From Saprospira grandis DSM 2844 (GTDB taxonomy: Bacteria; Bacteroidota; Bacteroidia; Chitinophagales; Saprospiraceae): DNA of 50,820 nt. Each line of letters starts with the position of its first letter. Position 1 is the stretch's first letter. A model generated the notes under the pieces. That model saw nothing but the letters and a program-made list of their open reading frames with translations. It searched no databases and had not been told where the DNA came from. The translations under genes and the position numbers were made by a program. The stretch lies in contig NZ_JH719942.1 in assembly GCF_000275825.1 (NCBI RefSeq), forward strand, positions 1,124,988-1,175,807, written 5' to 3'. Of this stretch, positions 6,241 through 44,832 are shown piece after piece.

Positions 6241-6336
6241 AGCTTTTTGTTTCCAGATTCTCTCATTTAACAGCCCTTTGGGGCTATGGTTGCCGCAAAG
6301 GTACAACTTTTTTCATCTGTTATTGAAAGTAGGAAT

Positions 6337-6485
6337 CTTTTGGGGCTTCCCCTGCGGCCTTCGGCCTTGGGTCGGGCTCTGTCGCAGCTCGCAAGTTTGC
6401 TCGGCCCTGCAGCGCTTTCAGCGCTTTGGTCTGGCCCTTCGGGCCCCTGCTATCCATCCCTAAGCCGAGTCGCTTCGCTCCTTTT
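6337..6485 (+). repeat. Family A repeat, copy 4 (forward, CATCCCTAAGCC subtype)
   Basis: ttttggggcttcccc...gggtcgggctctgtcgcagctcgcaagtttgctcggccc...ggtctggccc. Confidence 0.8.
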
Positions 6486-10116: not shown

Positions 10117-10220
10117 CAGTCTCTTTTTTTGTAAAAGCCTAGCGAATTTAAGAAAAAAAGCGCTTTGTGCCAATTTATACAAATTTGATTACAGATATAC
10201 GGATTCTTTTCACCTTTTTA

Positions 10221-10390
10221 TTTTTTTGGGGCTGCCCCGCCCTGCAGGCGGGTCGGGCTGTCTCAGGGCTCGCAAGCCTGCTCGGCCCTTCGCAAAAAAG
10301 CTGCGCTTTTTTGCTCGGTCTGGCCCTGCGGGCCACCCTTGCCCATCCCTCAGCCATTAAAAGCTGGCTGCGCCAGCCCCGCCCCAACAA
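10221..10390 (+). repeat. Family A repeat, copy 5 (forward, CATCCCTCAGCC subtype)
   Basis: tttttttggggctgccccgccctgcaggcgggtcgggctg...ctcgcaagcctgctcggccc...ggtctggccctgcgggccacc. Confidence 0.8.
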
Positions 10391-12019: not shown

Positions 12020-12215
12020 GTGGCCCCGCCGTATTGGCCCAGCGCTGCGAAGGGGTGGCGCAAAGCGCCAGACCCAGGCGCTGAAAGCGCCGCAGGGCCG
12101 AGCAGACCTGCGAGCCCCGACAACAAGGACTTTAGTCCGCAGTTCGACGACCGAAGGGAGTAACCATAGCGGCGGCCGACCTAGGCAAAGCCTAGCCGGC
12201 CGCGGGCCCCAAAAC
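12020..12215 (-). repeat. Family A repeat, copy 6 (reverse; with module X)
   Basis: ggccgagcagacctgcgagccccgacaacaaggactttagtccgcagttcgacgaccgaagggagtaacc...gggccccaaaacc. It ends 10 nt before the protease start codon. Confidence 0.8.
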
Positions 12216-15563: not shown

Positions 15564-15610
15564 TACAAATGGTTTACTGAAAAAATAGGTATGTATTTAT
15601 CTAGGAGGGT

Positions 15611-15765
15611 TTTGGGGCTGCCCCTGCGGCCTTCGGCCTGGGGTCGGGCTGTGTCGCAGCTCGCAGGTCTGCTCGGCCCTGCGGCGGCTTTGCCGCCTGG
15701 GTCTGGCCTGCGGCCACTGCTGTCCATCCCTCAGCCTGCGGCCCTTTGGGCCTGTAGGAGGCCGA
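15611..15765 (+). repeat. Family A repeat, copy 7 (forward, CATCCCTCAGCC subtype)
   Basis: Near-consensus copy: ttttggggctgcccctgcggccttcggcctggggtcgggctgtgtcgcagctcgcaggtctgctcggccctgcggcggctttgccgcctgggtctggcctgcggccac. Confidence 0.85.
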
Positions 15766-16462: not shown

Positions 16463-16617
16463 GCAGGGCCGAAGGCCCGCAAAGGAGCGCAGCGACGCGG
16501 CTGAGGGATGGACAAGGGGGGCCGCAGGCCAGACCAAGGCGGCAAAGCCGCCGCAGGGCCGAGCAGACCTGCGAGCCCTGAAACAGCCCGACCCGCCTGA
16601 AAGGCGGGGCAGCCCCA
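16463..16617 (-). repeat. Family A repeat, copy 8 (reverse, CATCCCTCAGCC subtype)
   Basis: Reverse complement of the consensus. It ends gggcggggcagccccaacaaaaaaa, 17 nt before the Smr gene start. Confidence 0.85.
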
Positions 16618-16633
16618 ACAAAAAAATAAAAAG

Positions 16634-17731
16634 ATGAAAGCAGGAGAAATTATACGATTTATCTATTCGGGTCAGCGGGCCGAGATTTTGGAAGATTATT
16701 TAGATGGCAGCTACCGGGTGTGGTTGTTGGAGGAAGATGAGGAGAGTGTTGCCTTTGGGGATGATGTGGTGCCGGAGGCCCATTATACGGGTCCGCAGAT
16801 TTCTGATATTCAGCGGGAGTTTGGCAAAAAGAGGCCAAAAAAAGCACCCAAGGGCTTATCTACGGAAGAATTATTTTATACCAAGGAAGAGATTGACCTA
16901 CGAAAATCGGGGCGGCCATTGCCAAAAAAAGAGGCCCCTATTCCGGTTTATCAGGCCCCAAAAATTGAGGGCAAGGCGGCAGAAAACAAAGGGATTTACC
17001 TCGCGTTTTATCCTTATGCGCAGGGGCAGTACAGCATTTATTTGGTCAATGATACGCCTTATGGATTTAACTTTGAGTTTGAGTTGCGGATTTTGCAGGA
17101 GCGGGCGCAGGCGCTCAAGCAGCATATTGGGCCACATGATTACTTTCCGATTGCAGAATTTGCGCATGCCAACTTGAATGATTCGCCTCAGCTTATTTTG
17201 CGTTTGCCTATATTTGAGTTGGAGCACAGCTTTAAGCTCAAGTACAAGAAGTGGATCAAATTGCAGCAGCCTATACCTTTGTTGGGTTTGGAGCTAGAGG
17301 GTTATCCTTGCTTTAGTTTGGCGGAATTGGAAGCTCGCAGAGAGCAGCCCAAAACCAATTTAAAAAAGTACACCTTAGAACAGCGCAAAACGCAGATGCA
17401 CAAGGAAATACACCGTCGGTATTACAACAAGCAGGATGCGCAGCGACTGGCTCATTTTGATTCTCGTTTAGATTTGCACATTGAGCTAATTTTCCCAGAA
17501 GACTACAAAGACCTACAGCCCTTTGAGTGTTTAGAATTTCAGGTAGAGGCCTTAGAAGACTACCTTAACCAGGCCTTAGAGATTGGGTTTTCGGGGCAGT
17601 TAGAGATTATACATGGGGTGGGCAAGGGTCGTTTGATGAAAGAGACTCATCGGCGTTTGGACCTTTTGAAGCGCAAAAAGATGATTCGGGGCTATCAGTG
17701 TGAGGGCGGCAACACCTTTGTAAAATTCTAG
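16634..17731 (+). CDS. Smr-domain protein
   Basis: C-terminal Smr motif (LEIIHGVGKGRLMKETHRRL). The N-terminal 280 aa or so are unassigned. Confidence 0.65.
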   Translation: MKAGEIIRFIYSGQRAEILEDYLDGSYRVWLLEEDEESVAFGDDVVPEAHYTGPQISDIQREFGKKRPKKAPKGLSTEELFYTKEEIDLRKSGRPLPKKEAPIPVYQAPKIEGKAAENKGIYLAFYPYAQGQYSIYLVNDTPYGFNFEFELRILQERAQALKQHIGPHDYFPIAEFAHANLNDSPQLILRLPIFELEHSFKLKYKKWIKLQQPIPLLGLELEGYPCFSLAELEARREQPKTNLKKYTLEQRKTQMHKEIHRRYYNKQDAQRLAHFDSRLDLHIELIFPEDYKDLQPFECLEFQVEALEDYLNQALEIGFSGQLEIIHGVGKGRLMKETHRRLDLLKRKKMIRGYQCEGGNTFVKF

Positions 17732-18140: not shown

Positions 18141-18488
18141 ATGCCACGTTCGGTAAATTCTGTAGCTTCAAGAAGAAGAAAGAAGAAAATTTTGAAGCAG
18201 GCCCGCGGTTACTTTGGAGCAAGATCTAAAGTATATACCGTTGCCAAAAATGCGGTAGAAAAAGGTATGCAGTATGCATACATTGGCCGTAAATTGAAAA
18301 AGCGCAGCTATCGTGCTCTTTGGATTCAGCGTATCAACGCTGCTGTTCGTCAAGAGGGCCTCAGCTACTCTCGCTTTATGCACCTTTTGTCTCAGAGCGG
18401 TATCGAGCTCAACCGTAAAGTGTTGGCCGATCTAGCGATGAACGAGCCTGCTGCTTTTAAAGCTATCGTGAATGCGGTAAAGAAATAG
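18141..18488 (+). CDS. rplT: 50S ribosomal protein L20
   Basis: The sequence is typical of L20 ([12 protein letters not shown]...; 115 aa). Confidence 0.9.
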
Positions 18489-20470: not shown

Positions 20471-21001
20471 ATGGCGAATTTCTCTTGGCTTCTTCTCTTG
20501 GGCTTTCTGACTTTTTCTCTATCCTATGCCAGTGCTCAAGAACTCATTAGCGACCCGGTCAGCTATGATGTTTTAGTTTTTGAACATTTCGAAAAAGGCA
20601 AAACTTACTTTATCCGAAAAGGCGGACGCATTAAGTACCGCCTCTACAACAACCCCAAAACCACCTATAAAGGAGAGCTCCAAAAGGTCAATCGAGAAAG
20701 CATGATTGTAGATGGCCGAGAAATCCCCTTTAAAGACTGTAGCCTCATTGCAGGCCGAGTACGCAGCCCCAAAGAGTTTCAAGGCGCTATTCTCCTAGGT
20801 ATGGGCGCTGGAATCATCCCCCTATCCGCTGCCCTTTTGGGCGTCAATACTATTGCCGGACCTATTGTTATTGTGGGCGGCATAGTCGTGCTTAGCGTAG
20901 GAATCATCCGGTCTATGTCGGCCCGAAAGTTTAAAATGAGCAAGGGCTGGGCTGCTTATGGTGGCCAACTACAATTTGACAGAAGCTATCAAAAACAATA
21001 A
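20471..21001 (+). CDS. Small membrane protein (signal peptide plus C-terminal glycine-rich TM segment)
   Basis: The start is taken at MANFSWLLLLGFL. The C-terminal stretch GMGAGIIPLSAALLGVNTIAGPIVIVGGIVVLSVGII is hydrophobic. Confidence 0.5.
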   Translation: MANFSWLLLLGFLTFSLSYASAQELISDPVSYDVLVFEHFEKGKTYFIRKGGRIKYRLYNNPKTTYKGELQKVNRESMIVDGREIPFKDCSLIAGRVRSPKEFQGAILLGMGAGIIPLSAALLGVNTIAGPIVIVGGIVVLSVGIIRSMSARKFKMSKGWAAYGGQLQFDRSYQKQ

Positions 21002-21002: not shown

Positions 21003-21818
21003 ATGCTAAAATCCTGGACCTATAAAGAGCAAGGCCTCGATGCCAAAGTAGAACTCTTTTACGATCATGTTCTCTGGACCAAAACGACCGAACAACTTTA
21101 TTTTTCGCTAGAAGAGGCCCTTTGCCGACCGCTTCCCATTGGGCCAAACTGGATTGATGCCGAGCTGATCGACTACCTTCAACAACTACTAAGCGAAAAG
21201 GAACTATCAGAAACAGGCCAACTTATTTTTGCCTTCTATAAGGGCTTGCAAAGCCATAAACTAATAGAACAAAGCTTCTTTTGGCCCAAGGTAGAGGAAA
21301 AACAACTACAGGCCCATTTTTCGGCCCAAGGGCTACTGCTCCTAGAAGAAACCCCCTACCAAATTCTGCCCCTGCAAGCACAAAGACTCTGGCATTTTTA
21401 TCTGCATGGAAGCAATATTCCCGGCCTGCCCTTTAAGGAAAGAAGACTTTGGAGCGACCAAATTAAACAACAGCTCCGCTGGCCCCAACTGGCCGCCCCT
21501 TTTGCCTTGCTCGACTATAGCCGCCTGCCCAAAAAACGCTACGAGGCCCAAGACGAAAATAATGAGCTCCATTTCCTTTGGCTAGAAGATGATTTTGCCC
21601 GAATTGGACAAGGACGAGGCAGCCAAAGCCGTAGCCAAAAACGAAGCTACGAACAGTTGCTCCGAGAAGGCACAAATGGCCTGCCCAACTGCCTAGCCGC
21701 CTATTGGCCCATGCTCTACAAACTGCTCCAAAGGATGTATATTCGAGGCCAAATGCCTAGCTATAAAGAATCAACTCCCTATGAAGGTCCCGCCCCCGGA
21801 CAAGCCCCTCCTGCCTGA
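21003..21818 (+). CDS. Hypothetical protein
   Basis: This ORF begins right after the previous stop, at MLKSWTYKEQ. It has no recognisable domain. Confidence 0.5.
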   Translation: MLKSWTYKEQGLDAKVELFYDHVLWTKTTEQLYFSLEEALCRPLPIGPNWIDAELIDYLQQLLSEKELSETGQLIFAFYKGLQSHKLIEQSFFWPKVEEKQLQAHFSAQGLLLLEETPYQILPLQAQRLWHFYLHGSNIPGLPFKERRLWSDQIKQQLRWPQLAAPFALLDYSRLPKKRYEAQDENNELHFLWLEDDFARIGQGRGSQSRSQKRSYEQLLREGTNGLPNCLAAYWPMLYKLLQRMYIRGQMPSYKESTPYEGPAPGQAPPA

Positions 21819-21832
21819 TTTTTTCTAGGCGT

Positions 21833-21990
21833 TTTTTTGGGGCTGCCCCTTCGCTTCGCTGCGGGTCGGGCCATTTCGCAGCTCGCAGGTCTGCTCGGCC
21901 CTTCGGCGCTTGCAGCGCCTCGGTCTGCCGCCTGCGGCGGCCCTGCTACAGCCCCTCAGCCGATAGGCTGGGGCTCCGCCCCAGCCCCAT
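21833..21990 (+). repeat. Family A repeat, copy 9 (forward)
   Basis: tttttttggggctgcccc...gggtcgggccatttcgcagctcgcaggtctgctcggccc...ggtctgccgcctgcggcggccc. Confidence 0.8.
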
Positions 21991-22069
21991 AAGGTATATG
22001 GCTGCGCCATATCGCTATAAAATAATTTGTAGCCCCCAATTGCCCCCCCAATCAAATTTATTTGCCAAC

Positions 22070-23137
22070 ATGAAATGGTTCCAACGTATCCGAAAAGCCT
22101 TTGAGGCCCTCCTTGAAGAAGATATCGAAAATGATTATGCAGATGATGGCCACCCTTTCCGAATCTTAAGCCAAGAACGCTCCTTTCTGCCCAATTCGGC
22201 AAAAGGAGACTTTAGACTCTACCGCCTCCACCAAAGCTTTTGCGCCTGCTGGTACGAACTACTGCTCGTCCGCTCCGATGATGGCAACCTCCGCTATGAA
22301 TTGCCCGGCTGGGGCCGTGCCGTAGCCATTAGCCCCGATAAAAGCAAACTCCTAGCCGCCCGAAATAAACAATTGGCCATCTTTAATGCCGCTACAGGCC
22401 AAATGATTGGCCAAGAAAAAACCCTAGACGCCTTTATTGATTTTCTGCTCTGGCTCCCCAATGAACAAATTGCCGCCACCGATGGAGAAAAAATCTACCT
22501 GCTCGACCAAGAGCTAGAACTTAAGGCCATTATTCATGACCCCATAGAAAAAGGAGGATTTATTGCCGGTATGCAACTGGGCCAACATCCCCATGAAATT
22601 ATTATCCTTGATTTTAATCAGCAAAAATTAAGATGCATAGACCTGCGCTCAGGCGCCCTAATTAAAGAAACCGAGGCCCAATATGCCGAACAACTGTTTC
22701 GGCAAAATAACCGCCTCTGGACCGCCGTGGTCAATGGGACCCAACTCCAAGAAATTCGCTTTTATGGCTTAGAAAAATTAGAAGAAAAATATGCCCTGCC
22801 CTTTAGAGGCAAAAAAGGCATCCGCTTCGCCAACCAGCCCCCTTCCGATATTAGTTATCATCATTGGACCTCTTTGCCGGCCCTCTCTCCAGAAGAACAA
22901 TTTCTACTAGTTAATGATAATGCAGGCCTGCTCTGGCTGCTCGATGCCCATACCGGAGACCACCGCCGGACCTTCTCGCCAAAATTATTGCCCTATGTCT
23001 ATGCCTGCCTCTGGCTCAATGAAGAAGAATTTGTGGCCCTTTTAGAAGACGGATTTCTGGCCAAGATGAATATCCGATCTAAATCCCTTATGTTTAAACA
23101 ACAAGATTTTGACCCGCAGCAAAATCGCTTCTTCTAA
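22070..23137 (+). CDS. Hypothetical protein (possibly beta-propeller-like)
   Basis: The start is taken at MKWFQRIRKAF. There are repetitive hydrophobic/Gly patterns and no catalytic motif. Confidence 0.55.
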   Translation: MKWFQRIRKAFEALLEEDIENDYADDGHPFRILSQERSFLPNSAKGDFRLYRLHQSFCACWYELLLVRSDDGNLRYELPGWGRAVAISPDKSKLLAARNKQLAIFNAATGQMIGQEKTLDAFIDFLLWLPNEQIAATDGEKIYLLDQELELKAIIHDPIEKGGFIAGMQLGQHPHEIIILDFNQQKLRCIDLRSGALIKETEAQYAEQLFRQNNRLWTAVVNGTQLQEIRFYGLEKLEEKYALPFRGKKGIRFANQPPSDISYHHWTSLPALSPEEQFLLVNDNAGLLWLLDAHTGDHRRTFSPKLLPYVYACLWLNEEEFVALLEDGFLAKMNIRSKSLMFKQQDFDPQQNRFF

Positions 23138-23280
23138 AGGCGCGAAGCGCCTGGCCTAGCGATGCGGCGGGGTGGCCCGAAGGGCCAGACCAAGCAGGCT
23201 TTGCCTGCGAAGGGCCGAGCAGACCTGCGAGCCCCAAAGCGTAGCGCAGCAAGGCGAAGCCGCAGCTGAGGCCCCAAAAC
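23138..23280 (-). repeat. Family A repeat, copy 10 (reverse, CATCGCTAGGCC subtype)
   Basis: ggcctagcgatgcggcggggtggcccgaagggccagacc...gggccgagcagacctgcgagcccc...gaggccccaaaac. Confidence 0.8.
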
Positions 23281-23318
23281 AGACAGACAAAAAAACCTAA
23301 CCCAACAATTATATTTTT

Positions 23319-26300
23319 ATGCAAAAAAAAGCAACAGAAGCGCAGTTCTTCTTTTCTCAACTGCTCAAGCTACAGCAAGTAGACCAACCTTTGGGGGCCA
23401 AATATCAGGCATTAGATGCCCTTTTGGTCCAGTTATTTTTACAATTGACCGAAAAAGAGCGCCTACATTTTAGTGATCGCTCGGCTCGAATTGCCTTTTT
23501 GTCTCATAAAGAAGACCTCAGCCGATCGGTCCAATGGCGCATTTACCAAATTATTAAGCGGGCCAAATGGATCCGCAGAAAAGAGCTAGAGCCTACGACT
23601 GGCCAATACGCCTCGGCCCTAAAAACCGTGACCTTTGCCATTGCGGCCCTTTGTCATGTTCCTTTACCCGAAGAATTGCGGGCCTTTTTGCCCAGCGATG
23701 AGGAAGAAGAGCAAGAAGATCGCAACCCCTTCCCCATCAAAGAAGGCATTATTGAGCAGCTAAAAGTGGTGGTTTTGCAAATTGATGCCGAGCAAGAACT
23801 CATCATCTGCCAACCTTATGGAGAGGGCTATACCGACCAGCTCAGGCTGCGTTATAATGTGCCCGAAATCAATGCGCAGTTTAACAGTACTATTGAGCTG
23901 ATGCAAGATCATTTCCCTGCTGGGGCCATTTTGCAATTGCTGCATGTCTTGGTAGAAGAATCGGGAATTTTGCTGCCCAAGCGCATCATCTTAGAGCCCG
24001 ACTACTTAGTAGATGTGACCAGCATTGCCGAATGTTTTCAGCCACAGGGCGCCTCGCCCTATCTCTTCCTACTCAAAAAGTTTTCGGTCTATGAAAATAG
24101 CTTGCCGCTGATGCTAGGAAATATTGCCAACCGCTTTTTGGACCTCTTGAGCAAGAACCCCAAGCTGGGCTTTCAGGAAGAATTTAAGAAGCTGTTTAGC
24201 CTCAATCCATTGGGCTTTGCCGACTTTAAGGACACCGATATTCGCAAGACCTATCATGAGGCCAAAAACCACTTTATCAACCTCCAGCATATTATCCTCA
24301 ATGAGTTTCCCAAACAGGGGATCGAGCGAGAGCGGATTTTGCTAGAGCCCTCTTTTTACTCTGCCCTTTATGGGATTCAGGGACGTTTGGACCTCTGGCA
24401 GCCGCCAGCAGAAGGCGACGATAAGGCCTTGATTGTGGAATTGAAGAGTGGCAAAACCTTTATGCCCAATAAGTACAACCTCAATCATAATCACTATGTG
24501 CAGACCTTGCTCTATGGCTTGCTGACCAAATCGGTTTATCCTAGCTATAAGAGTTTGGCCCATATTCTTTACTCTAAATTGCAAGAAAAACCGCTGCGTC
24601 TAGCCCCTAGCACGCAGTTTAAGGAAGATGAAGCCTTGGCCCTTCGCAACCAGATGGTGATGATGGAGCGACAGCTGGCCCAATTGGACCAAAGCTCCCT
24701 GGAGGAATATGGCCTTTTGCATCAGTTGGGGCCAGCTATTCTGCCCAAAGCTAGCGGCTATACCGCTAGAGGACTGGAAGAATTTGAAGCCTGCTTTTCT
24801 AATTTGAGCGAGCTAGAACGCCGCTACTTTATTGCCTTTTGTAGCTTTATTGCCAAAGAACAAATTTTGGCTAAAACAGGGGTAGAAGGAAATGATCGCG
24901 CCAATGGACAAGCGGGGCTCTGGCTTAGCGAAAGAGCCGATAAAGACGAACATTTTGAGCTTTTGGCCGGCCTAGAACTACTAGAAAACAATAGCGAGCA
25001 AGAACCGCCTATTCTCCGCTTTAAGCGAACGGAAAATACCAACCCCCTGGCCAATTTCAGACAGGGCGATATTGCTATTTTATACCCCGAAATGGGCCAG
25101 GATGACAATGTCTTGAAGCATCAGATTTTTAAGGGCTCTATTTCTCAAATCAATGCCGAAGAGCTTTGCTTCAAGCTCTACTCTCCCCAATGTAGCGGAA
25201 GCGTTTTTGAGGCGGCCAAAAGCTGGAGCTTAGAACACGATATGCTCGATAAGGGCTTTACGGTCCAGTATCAATCGCTCTTCAAATTCATGAATTTCCA
25301 TCCGGCCAAGCGACAGCTTTTATTGGGCCAAAGGGCCCCGCAAAAAAGCAGCGCTCCCCAAAATCGGAGCTTTATGCAGCCCTATTTGGGCGAAGACCAA
25401 AAGAGGATCCTCAACAAGGCCTTGGATGCCCAAGACTACTTTTTGTTGGTGGGCCCTCCAGGTACAGGCAAAACCAAGTTTATGCTGGCCCAAATGGTCG
25501 AATATCTGCACCGAAATAGCCAAGAAAACATCTTGCTTTTGGCCTATACCAACCGAGCTGTAGATGAAATTTGCGAAGCGATTGAGGAAGTGGGTATTGA
25601 TGATTATCTGCGCATGGGCAGCCGCTATTCTTGCGATCCTCGCTTTGAACATCGGATGTTTTCGGTGCAAACAGAAGCCCTAGCTAGCCGCAAAGATCTG
25701 CGAGCGACCATCGAGAAACATCGGGTATTTGTCTCTACGGTTTCTAGCATGCTCAACCGCCCGCTTTTGCTCAAGCTCAAGCAATTTAACACGGTCATTA
25801 TTGATGAGGCATCACAGATTTTGGAGCCCATGTTGCTCGGTTTGCTTCCGCATTTTCAGCGCTTTGTGCTGATTGGCGACCATAAGCAGTTGCCAGCGGT
25901 GGTGTTGCAGGACAAAGAGCAGTCGGCGGTTAAAGATGAGTTACTCCAAAGCATTGGTTTGCGCAATCGCCGCAACTCCCTCTTTGAGCGCTTGTTTGAG
26001 CAGGCCCAAAAAGAAGGCTGGACCCATTGCTACGATCAATTGCAGCATCAGGGGCGGATGCATGCCGAAATTGCCCGCTTTCCCAGCCAATTTTTCTACG
26101 ATAACAAGTTGTTGGAACTGCCCAAAGACAACCCAATTGGAGACTGGCAGCAGCAGCCCCTCCCCTTCCGTCCGATGCCCCAGGCCTCTGCTTTGGAGCA
26201 GCTTTTGGCCCAGCATCGCCTGCTCTTTATTCCCAGTCAATCGGATTATCAGGGGAACAGCAAAACCAATGAGGAAGAAGCCATTCGGGTGGGCGAATTG

Positions 26301-26702
26301 GTCCATGCTTTCAGAAACTTATACGAGCAGCAGGGCGGCGGTTTTGCTCCTGAGGACCTTGGCATCATCACGCCTTTTCGGGCGCAGATTGCCCAGATTC
26401 GCCATGTTTTGGCCCAATATAATATGGGCTATGAGCAGTGCAGCATTGATACGGTGGAGCGTTATCAGGGTGGGGCGCGCAAAATCATTCTCTTATCTTT
26501 GGCCATCAATATGAGTCATCAATTGCCGGCCATTGTCTCGCTTTCCGATGATGAGCAGGTAGACCGCAAGCTCAATGTGGCCCTTACTCGGGCTCGGCAG
26601 CAGTTGGTGGTTTTGGGCAATCCCAAGCTATTGGCCAATGATCCTCGTTATGCGGCCCTAATGGCATGGATTAAGGAGCGGGGCGGCTACTTTACCCCTT
26701 AG
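23319..26702 (+). CDS. PD-(D/E)xK nuclease - SF1B (Upf1/DNA2-like) helicase fusion protein, candidate Nhi-like defense enzyme
   Basis: Central nuclease motifs: GRLDLW, then IVELKSGK (ExK), then QTLLYGLL (QxxxY). C-terminal helicase motifs: I GPPGTGKT; Ia LAYTNRAVDE; II IIDEASQ; III LIGDHKQLPAV; IV QGRMHAEIARFPS; V GIITPFRAQ; VI ERYQGGARKIILLS ... NVALTRARQQLVVLGN. Confidence 0.85.
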   Translation: MQKKATEAQFFFSQLLKLQQVDQPLGAKYQALDALLVQLFLQLTEKERLHFSDRSARIAFLSHKEDLSRSVQWRIYQIIKRAKWIRRKELEPTTGQYASALKTVTFAIAALCHVPLPEELRAFLPSDEEEEQEDRNPFPIKEGIIEQLKVVVLQIDAEQELIICQPYGEGYTDQLRLRYNVPEINAQFNSTIELMQDHFPAGAILQLLHVLVEESGILLPKRIILEPDYLVDVTSIAECFQPQGASPYLFLLKKFSVYENSLPLMLGNIANRFLDLLSKNPKLGFQEEFKKLFSLNPLGFADFKDTDIRKTYHEAKNHFINLQHIILNEFPKQGIERERILLEPSFYSALYGIQGRLDLWQPPAEGDDKALIVELKSGKTFMPNKYNLNHNHYVQTLLYGLLTKSVYPSYKSLAHILYSKLQEKPLRLAPSTQFKEDEALALRNQMVMMERQLAQLDQSSLEEYGLLHQLGPAILPKASGYTARGLEEFEACFSNLSELERRYFIAFCSFIAKEQILAKTGVEGNDRANGQAGLWLSERADKDEHFELLAGLELLENNSEQEPPILRFKRTENTNPLANFRQGDIAILYPEMGQDDNVLKHQIFKGSISQINAEELCFKLYSPQCSGSVFEAAKSWSLEHDMLDKGFTVQYQSLFKFMNFHPAKRQLLLGQRAPQKSSAPQNRSFMQPYLGEDQKRILNKALDAQDYFLLVGPPGTGKTKFMLAQMVEYLHRNSQENILLLAYTNRAVDEICEAIEEVGIDDYLRMGSRYSCDPRFEHRMFSVQTEALASRKDLRATIEKHRVFVSTVSSMLNRPLLLKLKQFNTVIIDEASQILEPMLLGLLPHFQRFVLIGDHKQLPAVVLQDKEQSAVKDELLQSIGLRNRRNSLFERLFEQAQKEGWTHCYDQLQHQGRMHAEIARFPSQFFYDNKLLELPKDNPIGDWQQQPLPFRPMPQASALEQLLAQHRLLFIPSQSDYQGNSKTNEEEAIRVGELVHAFRNLYEQQGGGFAPEDLGIITPFRAQIAQIRHVLAQYNMGYEQCSIDTVERYQGGARKIILLSLAINMSHQLPAIVSLSDDEQVDRKLNVALTRARQQLVVLGNPKLLANDPRYAALMAWIKERGGYFTP

Positions 26703-26726: not shown

Positions 26727-26762
26727 ATCCCGCTAGTCATCATGACTAGGGGGATATTTTTT
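26727..26762 (+). terminator. Rho-independent terminator of the nuclease-helicase gene
   Basis: The hairpin cccgctagtcat/catgactaggggg is followed by atattttttt, which runs directly into the TTTTTGGGGCC start of a repeat element. Confidence 0.65.
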
Positions 26763-26905
26763 TGGGGCCTGCCGCCTTTGGCGGCCGGGCCCTTACAGGG
26801 CTCGCAGTTCTGCTCGGCCCTGCGTCGCCTTCGGCTCCTTGGTCTGGCCTGCGGCCACCCTTACAGGCCCCTAGGCCGTTTGGCCTTCGGCCATAGGGCG
26901 GCTTA
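26754..26905 (+). repeat. Family A repeat, copy 11 (forward, CATCGCTAGGCC-like subtype)
   Basis: tttttttggggcctgccgcctttggcggcc...ctcgcagttctgctcggccc...ggtctggcctgcggccaccc...ggccgtttggccttcggcc. Confidence 0.8.
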
Positions 26906-26939
26906 GCTATGCTATTCGGTCTTTGTAGAACAATCGAGA

Positions 26940-27088
26940 CTGTTTAAAGTTTTCTGTTTCTCCTTTTTGCTGCCTAGAAACAAGCCCCTAGACTCGCTTT
27001 TTTAGACAGCCCTCTAAAGAGGGCCTTTGGAGAAGGTTCTTCTCTGCGATAACAACTGAACAAGGCCCAGTATATCAACAGTTGAGGC
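26940..27088. repeat. Second repeat family (element B), copy 1
   Basis: About 85% identical to 38858..39008: gtttaaagttttctgtttctcctttttgctgcctagaaacaagcccctagactcgc...cagacagccctctaaagagggcctttgga...aacaactgaacaaggcc...tatatcaacagttgaggc. Confidence 0.7.
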
Positions 27089-27093
27089 TAAGT

Positions 27094-27160
27094 AGTTTAC
27101 TTCCAGACCGAACTAGTTTACCCCCAGACCGAACTAGTTTACCCCCAGACAGAACTTTTG
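27094..27160. repeat. Short tandem repeat (about 22 bp x 3; agtttaccYccagaccgaact)
   Basis: Seen directly: two perfect units and one degenerate unit, immediately after element B copy 1. Confidence 0.7.
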
Positions 27161-27297
27161 CCTTTTTTCATTTTGTTGCGTTATTTTTATTTTTAACAAA
27201 GCTCTAACAATTAGGCATAAAAAAAGGCGCAAAACCTAGGTTTTACGCCTTTTTCGGTGGCCGAAGCGGGAGGTCTAGCTTAGAACTAGCTGTTGAT

Positions 27298-27420
27298 CGG
27301 CCTAGCGATGCGGAAGGGGGCGGCGAAGCCGCAGACCAAGGCCGTCAGGCCGCAGGGCCGAGCAGCCTTGCGAGCCCTGCAGCGTAGCGCCTGCCGCAGG
27401 CAGGAGGCCCCAAAACAAAA
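27298..27420 (-). repeat. Family A repeat, copy 12 (reverse, CATCGCTAGGCC subtype, short)
   Basis: ggcctagcgatgcggaagggggcggcgaagccgcagaccaaggccgtcaggccgcagggccgagcagccttgcgagccc...ggaggccccaaaac. Confidence 0.8.
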
Positions 27421-27472: not shown

Positions 27473-30400
27473 TTAAGGCTTAACGACTTCAAAGTTCAGT
27501 TGGCTTTGCACGGCCTCGATATGAACATTGAGGTAATAAGTACCTGCGGGTAGGTTTTGGATAGCATCTAGGGTAATGAGGTCGCCGGGGCGGACTGTTT
27601 GGCTGCTGCTAAAGACCTGGCGGCCAAGCACATCTAGGAGTTTGAAATTCACTTTACTGCTAGTTTTGAGCTGGCTAAAGCGGATATTCACAAAATCGCT
27701 AGCGGGATTCGGGAAGACTGAAATATCGACACTTTCGGCTTCTGTATTATTTACTGCGCGGACTTCAGAGTACTCAAAGTCTCCGTTGAAATCGACTTGT
27801 CGTAGGCGGTAGTAAGTAGTATTCTCGTAGCTATTGTTATCGGTATAGCTATAGTAATTGGTTGTAGTGCTATTACCTTGACCTTGGACAAAATCGATTT
27901 GGCTAAAGTCGGTTTCATAGTCAAACATGCGTTCTACCTCAAAGCCTTGGTTATCTCTTTCTGTTTCGCTGGCCCAAGAGAGGAGCACTGTAGAAGAAGA
28001 CTGGCGTTCGGCATTGAAGAAGAGCCATTCGATGGGGAAATCGACATAAGTATTGGCATCGCGCCAGTCATTATCGTCGAGTCCGTCATTGTTGGGAGTT
28101 GGAGCGGTAGTACCGAGAGCGCTACCATTCACATTATCGTCGAAGATATCGGCGAGGCCATCATTATCGGCATCGATCCAGAAAGGAGAGTTAGGATCGA
28201 GGAAAGGAGGTGTTTGGTTATTGGTATAGCCATTTCCGTTGAGGTTATCTAGCCAATCGGGTAGGCCATCTCCATCGCTATCGGGATTGGGATAGTGAGC
28301 GGGATTACCGCCGTTGGCGACATAGGCTGCGGCCATTTGGATAATTTCGTCGGCGGCATTGCCATCGCCGGCGGTGGCGGTACCGAAGCCATTATCGAAG
28401 CCTTCGGCCCAGTCATAGCCGCTATCATTATCAGCATCGAGATCTAGATAATCTGCGGGAGCGCTGCCGTCATTATTATCCTCATTGGGCGTAGCGCCGA
28501 TATTTGCGCCTGTAGTTTGGTTAGCGGCATCTAGGCCTTCGTAGATATCGAGTACTCCGTTACCGTTAGCATCGGTGCCAGAAGGCGTCATGCCGAAGGT
28601 GGGGCAAGTAGAGCAAACGGCTTCTAGATAATCTGGAATACCGTCATTATCGGCATCGATATCATAGAGGTCGGCAATACCGTCGGCATCTGTATCCAAG
28701 AGATTGATAGTTCCATTTTGGAGGTCAGACCAGCCGTCGCCATTAGCGTCGGTAATGGGACCATCTTCAATTTGGCCATCGAGGGTACCGTTGCTGGGAG
28801 AATCGGTATTAGCGGCTCCGGTTACTGCGCCTGCTGCGGCTTCGACTACATCTGTAATTCCGTCATTATCGCTATCGAGATCGAGGAAATTGGGAGTAGC
28901 GTCGGCATCTGCGTTAGCATTTGGATAGCTATCGGGAGTGCCATCATTGTTATTGTCGGCGCCAGTCAAGATGAGTACGGCAGCGCTATTATCGGCGGTA
29001 CCATCATTATTGGGGTCACCGTCTAGGGCATCGGCAAAGCCATCGCCATCGGCATCGGTAAATGTATCTACGCGGCCATTGCCATCGGCATCGGTTCCAG
29101 CAGCTTCCAAGATATCTTGGATTCCATCGTTATCGCTATCGAGGTCATAGATATTGAGGAGGCCATCGGCATCGAAATCGCCATTGGGGTAAGTATCGGC
29201 TTGGCCGTCGTTGTTACTATCGGTTCCGGTAAGGATAAGAGCTTGAGCGCTATTCTCGGCGGTACCGTCATTTCCGACATCGCCATCGAGGATATCATGC
29301 AGGCCGTCGTTATCGGTATCGACAAAGTCGTCGGCAAAACCGTCTCCGTTGGTATCGGTTCCGCCAGCTTCTACCACATCGGCGATACCATCATTATCGC
29401 TATCGAGGTCATAGATATTGAGGAGACCGTCGTTATCTGCGTCGCCATTGGGATAATTATCGGGGGCACCGTCATTATTGACATCATTGCCTGTAAGGAT
29501 AAGAGCTTGAGCGCTATTCTCGGTGGTACCGTCGTTTCCGACATCGCCATCGAGGACATCATGCAGGCCGTCATTATCGGTATCGCTGAAATTATCGGCT
29601 AGGCCATCTCCGTTCGTATCGGTTCCGCCGGCTTCTACCAGATCGGTAATACCGTCATTATCGCTATCGAGGTCTAGTTGGTTGGGGATACCGTCACCAT
29701 CGACATCATTGTTAGGATAGCTATCAGCTAGGCCATCATTATTATTATCGGCGCCAGTAAGTTGGAGCGCATTAGCGGTATTTTCGGCGGTACCATCGTT
29801 TCCGACATCGCCATCAACAGCATCATGAAAACCATCGCCATCGGTATCGACAAAGTTATCGATTCGGCCATCGCCATCGGCATCAGTTCCGCCGGCTTCT
29901 ACGGCATCAGGAATACCGTCATTATCGCTATCGAGGTCATAGATATCTAAGATACCGTCAGCGTCAGAATCACCATTAAGATAACTATCGGCTAGGCCAT
30001 CATTATTATTATCGGCGCCAGTAAGTTGGAGCGCATTAGCGGTATTTTCTGCTGTGCCATCATTTCCTACATCCCCATCGACGACATCATGAAAGCCATC
30101 GCCATCGGTATCTGTAAAAGCATCTATTTGGCCATTACCGTCAGTATCTTCACCTCCAATTTCTACTAAATCAGGAATACCATCATTATCAGAATCTAGA
30201 TCTAAGCTATTCGGAATACCATCATTATCAGAATCTAAACCAGTAATTAAATTCCCGGCAGTACCGGTACCAATATAACTAACCTCCATATTAGAGATAC
30301 AAGAGGCCACTCCAGAGCAAAGAGATGGGTCTACATCTGTAGTTGTATTCATAATTATAACAACAACACCGTCGTCATTAGCGGTATTCCAAGAAGCAGT

Positions 30401-32491
30401 AGGAATACTAATAGGATTCATATCCATAGCAGGACTACCACAATTTGCATAAGCAGTATTGCTAGAATTTTGACGATTAAAAGGGCCTAAGATAGTTCCA
30501 TCCTCTAACTCTAGCGTAAAACTAGCGGCATCTGTGCCATAAGCACCCGACAAAGAAAAGGACAAAGAGGGAGCTACTGCTACATCTAAAGTATTGACAC
30601 TAAAACTAAGTGTATGGCTAGGCCCAACAGTATTCCGGCATTCATCTGAATAAGTTGCAGTAGATGCTCCACCAATCTCATCATCATAGATATCAACTAA
30701 ACCATCGCCATCTATATCTAGATCAGAGTCAACTTGGCCATCACCATCAGTATCAACTCCGCCAGCCTCTACAATATCTGGAATACCATCATTATCGGCA
30801 TCTAAGTCTACATGATCGGGAGAACCATCACCATCGGCATCAAAATTAGCACAAACACTATTAGAGATACCAGAGCAATAAGGAAAATCTACATCAGAAT
30901 AATTTGGGACACCATCGCCATCTAAGTCTCCAGAAGGATCTGGCAGACCATCTGCACAGTCCCAACCATTTACTCCCGCAAAAACATCTGCGCAGAAATT
31001 GGGATCAGCATAATCTGGTGTACCATCGCCATCATGATCTCCATTATAGATTTCTACAATATCCAGAACGCCATCATTGTCATCATCAATATCACAGGCA
31101 CTCAAAAGGTTATCTTCATCAATTTCTGTAGTATAGTTGGGGTTCTGAATAGGTACATATAAAGAAACAGATCCACCAGCAGTTCCATCAACTGATCCAT
31201 TTCTAGCACCATTAGTATGTTCACCTCCAGCACCACCATCAGAAATAAAAGTAAGATTGGTAGGTATAGAAGCCAGAGAGTATAACAAGGCTCCGCCACC
31301 GCCGCCACCACCTGGTCCATGCTCATTCGTGGTATTCAAATTTTGACCATCTCCTCCAGATACATTTACACTTAACAAGCCTTCATAAACTTGTGTTTTA
31401 AGAACAACGCTACCTCCAGCGCCTCCTCCGCCACCACCATCTGGGGCACCCACAGGATTTACAGCCACAGGAGTGGTCCCTCGAACATTGATAGTGTAGC
31501 CGTTTCCAACAATCGTATCCGCAAAAACAATTACAATTCCACCACCATCAGCAGCAGAAGAAGGGTTATTTGTAGATACCCAACCAGGTCCACCAGCACC
31601 ACCCAAGAACACTTTATCTTGAGCAAGATAGCTGTTTAAAGCAGCTCCACCTATACCTCCAGCAGGATCAACTTTATTGCACCAACGATTACCTCCATTT
31701 CCACCTTCACCATAGTTACTTCCGCCTCCTCCTCCAGAGTCACCAGAAGCACCAGAACCACCACCATTGGCCCGCTTTCCACGTCCATGGTTGGTAGCTG
31801 GATCATCTACAACAATACCACTCCCTTTTTCCCATGCTTCAATAGCTGTATTTGGTAGCGTATATTGAAGAGTTGGATCAATGGTACAGTTGTCTGGGCT
31901 TCCATTAACCGTCATTTGAATACCTTGATACCCCTTTCCTAAAAGATCAATATCCGCATTCAATACCAATTTATCCGTCACCAAGGCCAAAACCCCACCA
32001 ACACCATTCGTCTCACTCCAATCTTGAGCCGTCAAAGTAGAGTTGACCTCCACTACATTGTTTCCATAATCTGGAATCCGCACAACTTGCACCACTCCAG
32101 TTACATCATAATTCCGAATCAATGAATATTTAGGCGTCAATACATTTCCGGTAATACTCCCAATTTCAAAAAATTCATAGTTACCCGCCTCGTTAATATT
32201 CAAAATATCTCCTGAAGCAGATGTATTCGTCACATCTATATCCGCTCCCTTCATCTGAATAATCAAGGCCTTATCCCCAGCTGCAAAAGCCGAAGGGTCT
32301 TGCACCGTAATAGTATGCGCACAGGCCTGATCACAGGGATCGCATACGGGTAAATTTAACGATGTTACTGCCGTATAGTCATTGATAATCCCCCCAATGC
32401 TCACCTGAGCAATGGCAGAGCCCCCATACAACAAACAGAAAGCAAGGACAAAAACTGCCCTCCTTAAGTAGTTTGTAATTTTCACGTTCAT
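27473..32491 (-). CDS. Giant secreted calcium-binding repeat adhesin (thrombospondin type-3 repeats) with T9SS C-terminal sorting domain
   Basis: 1672 aa. It has a signal peptide, Gly-rich segments, more than 20 DxDxDGxxDxxD/DNDGIPD repeats and a C-terminal Por_Secre_tail (VFPNPASDFVNIRF...). The internal DNA units of about 270 bp are near-identical. Confidence 0.85.
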   Translation of the reverse strand: MNVKITNYLRRAVFVLAFCLLYGGSAIAQVSIGGIINDYTAVTSLNLPVCDPCDQACAHTITVQDPSAFAAGDKALIIQMKGADIDVTNTSASGDILNINEAGNYEFFEIGSITGNVLTPKYSLIRNYDVTGVVQVVRIPDYGNNVVEVNSTLTAQDWSETNGVGGVLALVTDKLVLNADIDLLGKGYQGIQMTVNGSPDNCTIDPTLQYTLPNTAIEAWEKGSGIVVDDPATNHGRGKRANGGGSGASGDSGGGGGSNYGEGGNGGNRWCNKVDPAGGIGGAALNSYLAQDKVFLGGAGGPGWVSTNNPSSAADGGGIVIVFADTIVGNGYTINVRGTTPVAVNPVGAPDGGGGGGAGGSVVLKTQVYEGLLSVNVSGGDGQNLNTTNEHGPGGGGGGGALLYSLASIPTNLTFISDGGAGGEHTNGARNGSVDGTAGGSVSLYVPIQNPNYTTEIDEDNLLSACDIDDDNDGVLDIVEIYNGDHDGDGTPDYADPNFCADVFAGVNGWDCADGLPDPSGDLDGDGVPNYSDVDFPYCSGISNSVCANFDADGDGSPDHVDLDADNDGIPDIVEAGGVDTDGDGQVDSDLDIDGDGLVDIYDDEIGGASTATYSDECRNTVGPSHTLSFSVNTLDVAVAPSLSFSLSGAYGTDAASFTLELEDGTILGPFNRQNSSNTAYANCGSPAMDMNPISIPTASWNTANDDGVVVIIMNTTTDVDPSLCSGVASCISNMEVSYIGTGTAGNLITGLDSDNDGIPNSLDLDSDNDGIPDLVEIGGEDTDGNGQIDAFTDTDGDGFHDVVDGDVGNDGTAENTANALQLTGADNNNDGLADSYLNGDSDADGILDIYDLDSDNDGIPDAVEAGGTDADGDGRIDNFVDTDGDGFHDAVDGDVGNDGTAENTANALQLTGADNNNDGLADSYPNNDVDGDGIPNQLDLDSDNDGITDLVEAGGTDTNGDGLADNFSDTDNDGLHDVLDGDVGNDGTTENSAQALILTGNDVNNDGAPDNYPNGDADNDGLLNIYDLDSDNDGIADVVEAGGTDTNGDGFADDFVDTDNDGLHDILDGDVGNDGTAENSAQALILTGTDSNNDGQADTYPNGDFDADGLLNIYDLDSDNDGIQDILEAAGTDADGNGRVDTFTDADGDGFADALDGDPNNDGTADNSAAVLILTGADNNNDGTPDSYPNANADADATPNFLDLDSDNDGITDVVEAAAGAVTGAANTDSPSNGTLDGQIEDGPITDANGDGWSDLQNGTINLLDTDADGIADLYDIDADNDGIPDYLEAVCSTCPTFGMTPSGTDANGNGVLDIYEGLDAANQTTGANIGATPNEDNNDGSAPADYLDLDADNDSGYDWAEGFDNGFGTATAGDGNAADEIIQMAAAYVANGGNPAHYPNPDSDGDGLPDWLDNLNGNGYTNNQTPPFLDPNSPFWIDADNDGLADIFDDNVNGSALGTTAPTPNNDGLDDNDWRDANTYVDFPIEWLFFNAERQSSSTVLLSWASETERDNQGFEVERMFDYETDFSQIDFVQGQGNSTTTNYYSYTDNNSYENTTYYRLRQVDFNGDFEYSEVRAVNNTEAESVDISVFPNPASDFVNIRFSQLKTSSKVNFKLLDVLGRQVFSSSQTVRPGDLITLDAIQNLPAGTYYLNVHIEAVQSQLNFEVVKP

Positions 32492-32536
32492 CTAAATGCT
32501 GTTAAAATGTGTTTGATAAAATGCTTATGTAATTTA

Positions 32537-32690
32537 TTTTTGGGGCTGCCCCGCCCTGCGGGCGGGTCGGGCTGTGTCGCAGCTCGCTACTCGCTCGGCC
32601 CTGCAGCAGCAAAGCTGCTTGGGTCTGCCGCCTTCGGCGGCCCTGCTTTCCATCCCTCAGCCAGTCGCTTCGCTCCTTAAAGAATAACTC
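32537..32690 (+). repeat. Family A repeat, copy 13 (forward, CATCCCTCAGCC subtype)
   Basis: ttttggggctgccccgccctgcgggcgggtcgggctgtgtcgcagctcgctactcgctcggccc... It lies 46 nt upstream of the adhesin start codon. Confidence 0.85.
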
Positions 32691-35171: not shown

Positions 35172-35358
35172 TCAGGGCGGGCCGAAGGCCCGCCGGCCTA
35201 GCGATGTGCAGCAGTGCGGCGCAGCCGCAGACCAAGGCCGTCAGGCCGCAGGGCCGAGCGAGTAGCGAGCTGCGAAACGACAACAAGGTCTTTAGACCGC
35301 AGTTCGACGACCGAAGGGAGTAACCGCCGACGACCGAAGGGAGGCGGAGGCCCCAAAT
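35172..35358 (-). repeat. Family A repeat, copy 14 (reverse; with module X)
   Basis: ggcctagcgatgtgcagc...gggccgagcgagtagcgagctgcgaaacgacaacaaggtctttagaccgcagttcgacgaccgaagggagtaaccgcc...ggaggccccaaat. Confidence 0.8.
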
Positions 35359-37045: not shown

Positions 37046-37190
37046 TTTGGGGCCTCCGCCTCGCTGCGCTCGTCGGCGCTACGCTTTGGGGCTCGCAGGT
37101 CTGCTCGGCCCTTCGCCAGCAAGCTGGCTCGGTCTGGCCTAACGGCCACCCCACCGCATCGCTAGGCCAGGCTGGCCTTCGGCCAGCCTT
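37046..37190 (+). repeat. Family A repeat, copy 15 (forward, CATCGCTAGGCC subtype)
   Basis: ttggggcctccgcc...cgctacgctttggggctcgcaggtctgctcggccc...ggtctggcctaacggccacc...catcgctaggccaggctggccttcggccagcc. Confidence 0.8.
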
Positions 37191-38788: not shown

Positions 38789-38857
38789 TATAAGGCCTTG
38801 CTCCTTAGTAGAATATTAGATGATCCCCTCCTCGGAGGGGATTTGAGCCTGTTTAAA

Positions 38858-39050
38858 ATTTTGTGTTTCTCCTTTTTGCTGCCTAGGGACAAGCCCCTAG
38901 GCTAGCTTTTTCAGACAGCCCTCTAAAGAGGGCCTTTGGATGAGGTTTTTCTCTGTGACAACAACTGAACAAGGCCTTGTATATCAATAGTTGAGGCCCT
39001 CGCAGAGGGCTGACTCCATTGGATTAGCCTAGGGGCTTGTCCCTGGGCGA
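38858..39050. repeat. Second repeat family (element B), copy 2, with 21-bp terminal inverted repeats
   Basis: About 85% identical to 26940..27088. The internal inverted repeat is ctgcctagggacaagcccctaggct ... agcctaggggcttgtccctgg. There are internal hairpins (gccctctaaagagggc; gccctcgcagagggc). Confidence 0.7.
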
Positions 39051-39137
39051 CTATTGGCCAAATCCCAACAAGCTAAAGGCCCAAATTTTATTCTAATACA
39101 CAAAATCCTGAACAGTCCCAGGGATTTTTTTTGTGCC

Positions 39138-39484
39138 CTATTCGACAGAGATCAAACAGCTCATCAAAGTCTTGATGCCCTATTCGACAGAGATCTAATA
39201 CCCCATCAAAGGCTTGATGCCCTATTCGACAGAGATCTAATACCCCATCAAAGGCTTGATGCCCTAGTTGACAGAGATCAAACAGCCCATCAAAGGCTTG
39301 ATGCCCTAGTTGACAGAGATCTAATACCCCATAAAAGGCTTGATGCCCTAGTTGACAGAGATCAAATACCCTATAAAAGGCTTGATGCCCTAGTTGACAG
39401 AGATCAAATACCCCATCAAAGGCTTGATGCCCTATTCGACAGAGATCTAACAGCTCATCAAAGGCTTGATGCCCTAGTTGGTCC
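39138..39484. repeat. 42-bp tandem repeat array (8 full units plus a partial unit), frame-preserving
   Basis: The units begin at 39138, 39180, 39222, 39264, 39306, 39348, 39390 and 39432. Consensus: ctaKtYgacagagatcWaaYaSCYcatMaaaGKcttgatgcc. There are no interspersed unique spacers. Confidence 0.9.
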
Positions 39485-39520
39485 AAAAACAAAAGGGGCT
39501 GCTCGATATCGAGCAGCCCC
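39480..39520 (-). terminator. Rho-independent terminator downstream of the outer-membrane protein gene
   Basis: The perfect palindrome ggggctgctcgatatcgagcagcccc is followed on the minus strand by ttttgtttttgg. Confidence 0.7.
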
Positions 39521-39543
39521 TTTGCAGCAGGTCCTAAGTCATC

Positions 39544-41258: not shown

Positions 41259-41420
41259 GGACAGGCGGCGAAGCCGCCGCAAAGGAGCGCAGCGACGCGG
41301 CTGAGGGATGGAGAGGGTGGCCCGCAGGGCCAGACCGAAGCGCTTTAGCGCTGAAGGGCCGAGCAGACCTGCGAGCCCGGAACAGCCCGACCCGCCCGCA
41401 GGGCGGGGCAGCCCCAAAAA
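41259..41420 (-). repeat. Family A repeat, copy 16 (reverse, CATCCCTCAGCC subtype)
   Basis: gacaggcggcgaagccgccgc...gctgagggatgg...gggccgagcagacctgcgagcccgg...gggcggggcagccccaaaaaaa. Confidence 0.85.
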
Positions 41421-41429
41421 AAGAAAGAT

Positions 41430-44669: not shown

Positions 44670-44832
44670 TTTTGGGGCCTCCGCAGCAAAGCTGCGGCGC
44701 TACGCTTTGGGGCTCGCAAGTCTGCTCGGCCCTTCGTTTTTCGCTACGCTCAAAAACTCGGTCTGGCCTTCGGCCACCCCGCCGCATCGCTAGGCCAGAT
44801 GGCCTACGGCCAAGGCGGCTTTGCCGCCTTCT
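44670..44832 (+). repeat. Family A repeat, copy 17 (forward, CATCGCTAGGCC subtype)
   Basis: ttttggggcctccgcagcaaagctgcggcgctacgctttggggctcgcaagtctgctcggccc...ggtctggccttcggccacc...catcgctaggccagatggcctacggcc. Confidence 0.8.

Follow-up and report, generated by a model that had tools for sequence, protein, structure and literature searches.

A 50,820-nt stretch of the Saprospira grandis DSM 2844 genome (assembly GCF_000275825.1, contig NZ_JH719942.1, positions 1,124,988 to 1,175,807 of the forward strand; hereafter the window, numbered from its first nucleotide) carries a gene for a 1127-residue protein that joins a nuclease to a helicase in one polypeptide. We propose that this protein is a stand-alone, chromosomally inherited bacterial homologue of DNA2, likely a nuclease-translocase that threads single-stranded DNA (ssDNA) in repair or replication, and we place the probability of this reading at roughly 0.6. 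The initial annotation, made from the letters of the window, had put the protein forward as a candidate antiviral enzyme of the Nhi type, naming a Dna2-like repair helicase as the alternative. It is the alternative that holds. Mouse DNA2 is matched colinearly by a sequence profile as well as by the predicted fold, a family of replication and repair helicases provides the best match, and we are confident that the protein is a Dna2 homologue and not an Nhi. A housekeeping role in DNA repair or replication goes one step further, and we consider it reasonably likely.

The gene runs uninterrupted on the forward strand from an ATG at 23319 to a stop codon ending at 26702, a complete open reading frame (ORF) of 1127 codons plus stop, as seen in the ORF list and its translation. 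A counterpart of the same length, 1127 residues, is present in Saprospira sp. CCB-QB6 and is 92% identical. Neither the GC content of the gene (0.487) nor its codon usage (r 0.86 with the rest of the window) sets it apart within the window. Translation confirms every motif quoted in the initial annotation: the nuclease motifs GRLDLW (D358), IVELKSGK (E374, K376) and QTLLYGLL (Q395, Y399), followed by the helicase motifs GPPGTGKT, DEASQ, GDHKQLPAV, QGRMHAEIARFPS, ITPFRAQ, YQGGARKIILLS and NVALTRA. The catalytic codons of the nuclease lie, on the + strand, at 24345-24347 (E343), 24390-24392 (D358), 24438-24446 (E374 and K376) and 24501-24515 (Q395 and Y399). We scored residue conservation in 240 full-length homologues for the nuclease and the N-terminal part, and in an alignment of 41 members for the helicase motifs. 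Residues E343, R356, D358, E374, K376, Q395, Y399, R443 and N444 are each found in 240 of the 240 homologues, and the helicase residues G712-T719 (Walker A), D829/E830, G853/D854, Q911-H915, T1018-Q1023 and T1090-A1092 are invariant. Such a motif set is far beyond chance, and the nuclease and ATPase sites are both intact.

Pfam detects the superfamily 1B (SF1B) helicase alone in the window protein, with AAA_11 (E 5e-29) and AAA_12 (E 8e-33) covering residues 690-1102. The helicase matches in the PDB are Upf1, Sen1, IGHMBP2 and DNA2, and the best solved-structure relative by phmmer is mouse DNA2 (E 2e-36). Used on their own, the N-terminal 694 residues gave no phmmer match in the PDB, and a family profile is therefore needed to see the homology of the nuclease. 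A profile of 41 homologues matches DNA2 with an E-value of 2.6e-57 in a single colinear stretch (337-1116 against DNA2 262-1037), in which LEPSF...GRLD is paired with IEESI...GKID, ELKSGK with ELKTGK, QtllY with QVVLY, and LklRN with LKLRN, along with all helicase motifs. The nuclease motifs D, ExK and QxxxY, the next LxLRN helix and helicase motifs I to VI are thus all aligned between the two proteins. The Pfam Dna2 family (PF08696) matches 17 of the 41 members at E<=0.1, with a best E-value of 1.8e-6 and an alignment that extends back to residues 216-270; PDDEXK_1 matches 10 of the 41.

The predicted fold leads to the same relative. A confident AlphaFold2 model built on the alignment (predicted local distance difference test 87, predicted template-modelling score 0.85) matched mouse DNA2 (5ean) in Foldseek with an E-value of 1.6e-46 over 1152 aligned columns (template-modelling scores of 0.63 and 0.67), making DNA2 the top match by sequence and by fold. 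All other Foldseek matches, namely Upf1, IGHMBP2, Sen1, SETX, ZNFX1, Aquarius and nsp13, cover the helicase half only. The domains follow the order seen in mouse Dna2 (PDB 5EAN/5EAW). An OB-fold domain (residues 140-225; 23736-23993, +) takes the position of the OB domain of mouse DNA2 and precedes a Dna2/RecB-type PD-(D/E)xK nuclease (residues 226-455; 23994-24683, +), which is supported by profile alignment, conservation and Pfam. Nuclease and helicase are linked, as in DNA2 and Upf1-like helicases, by stalk helices (residues 480-520) and a beta-barrel (residues 549-640; together 24756-25238, +), placed by the secondary structure of the model and colinearity with DNA2, whose stalk, beta-barrel and helicase layout has been described (PMC4716839). 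The SF1B (Upf1/DNA2-like) helicase core, with RecA domains 1A and 2A and motifs I-VI, occupies residues 690-1105 (25386-26633, +), as indicated by Pfam, PDB matches and invariant motifs. The initial domain call, a PD-(D/E)xK nuclease with an Upf1/DNA2-type SF1B helicase C-terminal to it, was therefore correct. The two proteins differ in that sequence identity is just ~20% and that the host here is a bacterium, with the single-stranded DNA-binding protein SSB in place of RPA. Joint Genome Institute (JGI) pipelines label homologues 'DNA replication ATP-dependent helicase Dna2', and 'DNA2/NAM7 family helicase' is also in use, so the family assignment as such is not new.

The N-terminal 330 residues or so, in which no motif had previously been recognised, can now be divided into a helical domain (residues 1-133), the OB fold (140-225) and the start of the Dna2-type nuclease domain (from ~226). 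The N-terminal extension of the nuclease is helical and contains D228, D232, G267, N271, D275 and H318, which are invariant or nearly so, G267, N271 and D275 being invariant. Foldseek on the same model weakly supported the OB fold. The helical domain adds ~130 residues relative to DNA2, which has just a short RPA-binding alpha1 helix. HEPN domains are up-down bundles of four helices in which an insert separates helices 2 and 3, a fold that the helical domain may resemble. Their RNase motif, Rx4-6H, is expected at the end of helix 3 (PMC3710099). Across the 240 members helix 69-86 does not end in a conserved R-x4-6-H. An insert helix holds an R57-x5-H63 pair, of which H63 is kept in just 44%, and the window protein has Y and I at the semi-conserved positions H76 (78%) and R79 (94%). 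Foldseek with the model returned no HEPN match, and Pfam no HEPN family match. With the motif missing and neither search finding HEPN, we tentatively describe residues 1-133 as HEPN-like in fold only, and probably non-catalytic.

The nucleases of DNA2, AddB, Cas4 and Bad carry a four-cysteine 4Fe-4S 'iron staple' (PMC4716839, PMC7430649). No conserved set of four cysteines exists in residues 1-520 of the 240 members, where the only columns with >=25% Cys are 62 (28%), 239 (79%) and 340 (66%), the last of which is Ile in the window protein. The CKYCSQIGNC segment of DNA2 (its CxxCx5C region) aligns to a Cys-free stretch of the family profile. Unlike DNA2, the family therefore has no Fe4S4 ligand cysteines, and the non-cysteine residues D228, D232, G267, N271, D275 and H318 presumably replace the staple structurally. 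This also separates the family from Bad of Geobacillus stearothermophilus, the only biochemically characterised bacterial DNA2-like enzyme, an ssDNA endonuclease and 5'-3' translocase/helicase (PMC7430649). Bad holds its Fe-S cluster with four cysteines and was discovered through a search for that signature; it is described as rare and sporadic, and in Geobacillus it always stands beside a Type III-like methyltransferase, from which a role in a restriction system has been suggested (PMC7430649). By that published description, Bad differs from the present family, which has no four-Cys signature, is broad in Bacteroidota and allied phyla, and has housekeeping neighbours. We found no methyltransferase close to the gene, either in the window or at loci with annotated or Pfam-scanned gene calls.

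Searching with the N-terminal 690 residues alone yielded 1,188 cluster representatives at 50% identity, of which 716 have E<1e-30. With few exceptions they are ~1,100 residues long and match at the same position, showing that the architecture is fixed. At least 63 genome loci encode both the nuclease and the helicase, in Saprospiraceae, Lewinellaceae, Chitinophagales, Dysgonomonas, Proteiniphilum, Bacteroides, Prevotella/Segatella, Muribaculaceae, Ignavibacteria and Cloacimonadota. Among the matches listed, identity falls stepwise with taxonomic distance, from 92% within the genus to 56-48% in the nearest relatives of Saprospira, including Aureispira, then 40-46% in other Saprospiraceae, 31-37% in Bacteroidales and 29-31% in Cloacimonadota. 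A few matches bear odd bin labels (Hyphomicrobiales, Clostridia and Prochloron metagenome-assembled genomes), which could be mis-binning or transfer. Relatives are absent from 50,697 phage records and from IMG/VR, and only three matches are typed as plasmids, all of them non-mobilizable records of 82 kb to 1.77 Mb. One of these, Bacteroides finegoldii 'plasmid 23' (NZ_OY725925.1, locus L087; 177 kb), is evidently a chromosome fragment, since trkA, dxs, murF-alr and tatA-tatC directly precede the gene there. The family is ancient, largely vertical, chromosomal and non-mobile, with a taxonomically coherent distribution, and the sporadic spread on plasmids or cassettes that would go with an Nhi-like enzyme is not seen. 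On the B. finegoldii record, the Dna2-like ORF (WP_306561234) and the end of tatC share ~25 nt, suggesting that in Bacteroides the gene is co-transcribed with tatAC.

Studies of DNA2 (PMC4716839) and Bad (PMC7430649) describe threading of ssDNA ends, 5'-3' translocation and ssDNA endonuclease activity, and it is by analogy with these two enzymes that we infer the substrate, polarity, cellular role and partner of the S. grandis protein. A free ssDNA end would thread into the tunnel of the RecB-type nuclease domain, as in mouse DNA2 and Geobacillus Bad. The C-terminal SF1B motor would move 5'->3' along the same strand, feeding the nuclease, which would cut ahead of the motor, and the predicted outcome is endonucleolytic trimming of 5' flaps or overhangs. 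Plausible settings would be end resection at double-strand breaks and the processing of stalled or reversed forks and of long flaps. The OB fold and the helical HEPN-like domain most likely serve in protein interaction or regulation; they sit where DNA2 has its RPA-binding alpha1-OB module, making SSB a candidate partner.

Several points weigh against this proposal. Our literature search found no study of Bacteroidota Dna2-like proteins and no experiment on any family member. The window protein itself scores only E 0.21 and 11.7 bits against PF08696, where the gathering score is 22.4. The family lacks the Fe-S cluster that matters for the structural integrity of DNA2, AddB and Bad, and may therefore differ in the geometry of its tunnel and in how it handles substrates. 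Its helicase core falls in the Upf1-like branch, where RNA helicases are found as well, and outside this family an N-terminal fold of the HEPN-like kind typifies RNA-targeting and conflict systems. Contigs labelled Flavobacterium or Cytophagales gave only partial matches among the matches listed. Finally, no neighbour is conserved family-wide among the loci listed, and none points to a pathway.

A broader form of the proposal would make the protein an ancient, vertical, Fe-S-free Dna2 orthologue that serves as a principal 5'-strand resection and flap enzyme of Bacteroidota and the phyla of the Fibrobacteres-Chlorobi-Bacteroidetes (FCB) group, with its OB/HEPN-like module coupling it to SSB or to nucleic-acid signals. 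We regard this as unlikely. If it were true, a eukaryote-like Dna2 pathway would exist in bacteria, contradicting the view of bacterial DNA2-like enzymes as rare and sporadic, and the 'iron staple' would be dispensable for a Dna2-type tunnel nuclease. Should the family carry out Dna2-type end or flap processing at all, Bacteroides would offer a tractable bacterial system for the Dna2 mechanism and the family a natural test of the purpose of the Fe-S 'staple'. The breadth of the family in Bacteroidota, its loss of the iron-sulfur staple and its extra N-terminal domain were not found described in the literature searched.

The helicase core and the HEPN-like fold also allow the protein to be read as acting mainly on RNA or RNA:DNA hybrids, at R-loops, in transcription-replication conflicts or in RNA surveillance, much as Sen1/Senataxin and Upf1 do, with the HEPN-like domain binding RNA. 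Besides DNA2, the nearest helicase relatives are indeed Sen1, Upf1, IGHMBP2 and SETX (E 1e-38 to 1e-32), which work on RNA or on RNA and DNA. The HEPN similarity is, however, not reproduced by Foldseek or by sequence, and the Rx4-6H motif is absent or not conserved, H76 and R79 being replaced in the window protein as described above. RecB-type PD-(D/E)xK nucleases are DNases. DNA2, moreover, is the best and the only full-length match, and this match includes the nuclease tunnel domain that binds ssDNA in DNA2 (PMC4716839). We therefore find a primary role on RNA improbable.

An antiviral or anti-plasmid function, in which the protein would be a single-protein nuclease-helicase that is Nhi-like in function or a new core-encoded defence, seems to us very improbable. 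The OB and HEPN-like module would here sense phage replication intermediates or phage SSB, and phage DNA would be shredded. It speaks for this idea that a nuclease combined with an SF1 helicase recurs in defence (Nhi, Hna, Mokosh; PMC10732053, 10.1101/2022.05.11.491447), that HEPN-like folds are common in conflict systems (PMC3710099), that Bad adjoins a methyltransferase suggestive of restriction, and that the strongest partial matches in PADLOC and NCBIfam are to defence helicases. MkoA is the top PADLOC match (208 bits), with further matches to MkoC and PDC-S37, weak ones to ProA and Hhe, and a score of 248 bits for PLuB_AAA in NCBIfam. These matches are, however, limited to the generic Upf1-like core: in PADLOC the best of them begin only at about residue 800 (MkoA at residues 798-1107, MkoA/MkoC at ~798-1110), and the partial PLuB_AAA match starts at residue 603. 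They also remain far below curated cutoffs, with 248 against 999 bits for PLuB_AAA. NCBIfam further gives IGHMBP2 at 186 bits, where the cutoff is 349. The architecture is, furthermore, uniform over ~1,200 clusters whose identity tracks taxonomy, the family is not found in phage or viral collections or on genuine plasmids, and the HEPN catalytic motif is not conserved. PADLOC found no match in seven flanking window proteins, and neither integrase nor transposase occurs among the window proteins scanned.

Membership in the described defence families can likewise be set aside. Nhi of Staphylococcus epidermidis (SERP2475) has 606 residues, with an HsdR-like PD-(D/E)xK nuclease, a Dda-like DUF2075 helicase and a glyoxalase-like C-terminus (10.1101/776245), and its function needs both nuclease and helicase activities (10.1101/776245). 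The helicase is defined by DUF2075 (PF09848; bioRxiv 10.1101/776245; 10.1101/2022.05.11.491447). Nhi is found in <1% of genomes, often on plasmids or staphylococcal cassette chromosome (SCC)-type cassettes beside defence genes (10.1101/776245; PMC11470126), and its phylogeny is incongruent with that of its hosts (10.1101/776245). The S. grandis protein resembles it in carrying an N-terminal PD-(D/E)xK nuclease on the same polypeptide as an SF1 helicase, but the nuclease is of the Dna2/RecB type and not HsdR-like, ~225 extra residues precede it, the total length is 1127 residues, the helicase is of the Upf1/DNA2 type, and the gene is chromosomal and largely vertical. The PADLOC Nhi model (PDLC02372) aligns only with residues 689-744, around Walker A, through positions 182-237 of its 470 (E 3e-5, 20.8 bits), and PF09848, now named SLFN-g3_helicase, reaches 14.4 bits (E 0.024), where the cutoff is 24. 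Given these scores, the different length and layout, and a family that is neither sporadic nor mobile, we do not assign the protein to Nhi, and the proposal of an Nhi-type antiviral enzyme is not supported. Mokosh shares the Upf1-like COG1112 helicase core of MkoA and MkoC but itself has no RecB-type nuclease and requires a PLD nuclease and, in type I, also an STK domain (10.1101/2022.05.11.491447). Pfam found neither a PLD nor a kinase match in the protein or its scanned neighbours, and Mokosh, PLuB, ProA and Hhe are rejected on their partial, helicase-only matches. A literature search on 'PLuB system' found nothing. We advise against counting the locus as a defence system, of the Nhi type or any other, and it should be dropped as a defence candidate.

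The genes surrounding the Dna2-like gene in the window are ordinary chromosomal genes, including uvrC (at the far end of the window, ~21 kb away), two tRNA-Asn genes, an MqnC-like radical SAM (S-adenosylmethionine) enzyme, a subtilase, alanine racemase (alr), rpmI-rplT, a GYDIA GHMP kinase and cargo of the type IX secretion system (T9SS). Across loci, the nearby genes that were annotated or scanned with Pfam are also ordinary ones, for metabolism, ribosomal proteins and surface proteins. A DNA-metabolism gene lies ~5.5 kb upstream: it encodes a 365-residue protein with DUF2027 and a C-terminal Smr domain (a MutS2-like nicking endonuclease domain; 16634-17731, +).

Three genes directly upstream, which the initial annotation had offered as possible partners, are indeed located there, on the + strand: a 176-aa membrane protein (20471-21001) and a 271-aa protein (21003-21818), both with no family match, and a 355-aa orphan protein (22070-23137) with just weak WD40/beta-propeller hints in Pfam. 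Saprospira sp. CCB-QB6 has the same three sizes called in an identical order, which reads rpmI-rplT, GHMP kinase (-), 269 aa (-), 176 aa, 271 aa, 355 aa and the Dna2-like gene. Conservation outside the genus does not follow this block. The 176-, 271- and 355-aa genes are in none of the at least 76 genome loci listed, and none of them stands beside the helicase in Aureispira. In a sister clade (L080, L081 and L083; 55-56% identity), the Dna2-like gene has a homologue of the 355-aa gene right beside it, 0-7 bp away, and in L080 the 176/271 pair lies at 21647-23057 (-), 9 kb downstream of the helicase and on the opposite strand. The 355-aa protein is 95% identical to a Saprospira grandis protein, and its family comprises just 14 clusters among 5.8 billion proteins. 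Its distant members (L084, L085 and L086) are not beside a Dna2-like gene; upstream of them a WG_beta_rep gene recurs, accompanied in most cases by an epimerase/DUF1731 gene.

The ribosomal protein gene rplT gives a further point of comparison. It lies directly upstream of the Dna2-like gene in a locus from another Saprospiraceae genome (L001) and 2.3 kb away in locus L002. In the window, rplT (18141-18488) is separated from the Dna2-like gene by 4.8 kb, which holds the GHMP kinase and the 269-, 176-, 271- and 355-aa genes; set against L001, this looks like a later rearrangement or insertion. The neighbours thus differ between clades, and there is no strict conservation of syntenic position. 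A four-gene operon or defence island is rejected, and partnership of the upstream genes finds no support, the 176/271 genes being a separate pair and the 355-aa gene adjoining only in Saprospira and the sister clade. The adjacency of the 355-aa and Dna2-like genes is local synteny, not a functional module, and in the window it is broken by a 129-nt dispersed repeat (23153-23281).

This repeat belongs to a GC-rich family of ~70-150 nt that is dispersed, in both orientations, through almost every intergenic gap. Copies lie at 1-130, 2463-2581, 4837-5058, 6330-6466, 10215-10293, 12035-12165, 15602-15742, 16497-16629, 21824-21939 and 23153-23281 in the first half, and at 26757-26877, 27297-27418, 32532-32587, 35180-35357, 37049-37168, 41299-41425, 44670-44796, 45772-45890 and 49965-50208 in the second. 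They contain internal palindromes, with a core like GGGCCGAGCAGACCTGCGAGC and termini TTTTGGGGCC or GGCCCCAAAA; the family has no Rfam match and looks like repetitive extragenic palindromic (REP) elements or miniature inverted-repeat transposable elements (MITEs). A copy occupies the 182-bp gap that precedes the Dna2-like gene, and two inverted copies (26757-26824 and 27351-27418, 76% complementary) flank its 3' intergenic region. Rfam gave no match near the gene, and a scan for sigma-70 promoters and terminators stayed at or below the expectation from shuffled sequence, Bacteroidota promoters being outside what the scan covers.

Downstream of the helicase gene, a 153-nt sequence (26936-27088) recurs 11.9 kb away at 38845-38997 with 90% identity, and beside it stand three tandem copies of a 21-nt unit (27090-27152). 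A gene at 27473-32491 (-) encodes a 1672-aa protein with an AgmC-N-like start and a T9SS sorting tail, internal 264-nt repeats (28890-30245) in which calcium-binding-like D-x-D-x-D-G motifs abound, and an unusually low GC content at third codon positions (0.37). Saprospira sp. CCB-QB6 has a 2451-aa T9SS protein in the same slot, indicating a variable giant surface protein. A further tandem array, with a perfect 42-nt period and ~9-12 copies (39050-39553, +), makes up nearly all of a 166-aa ORF (39054-39554), which thus encodes a 14-aa repeat protein.

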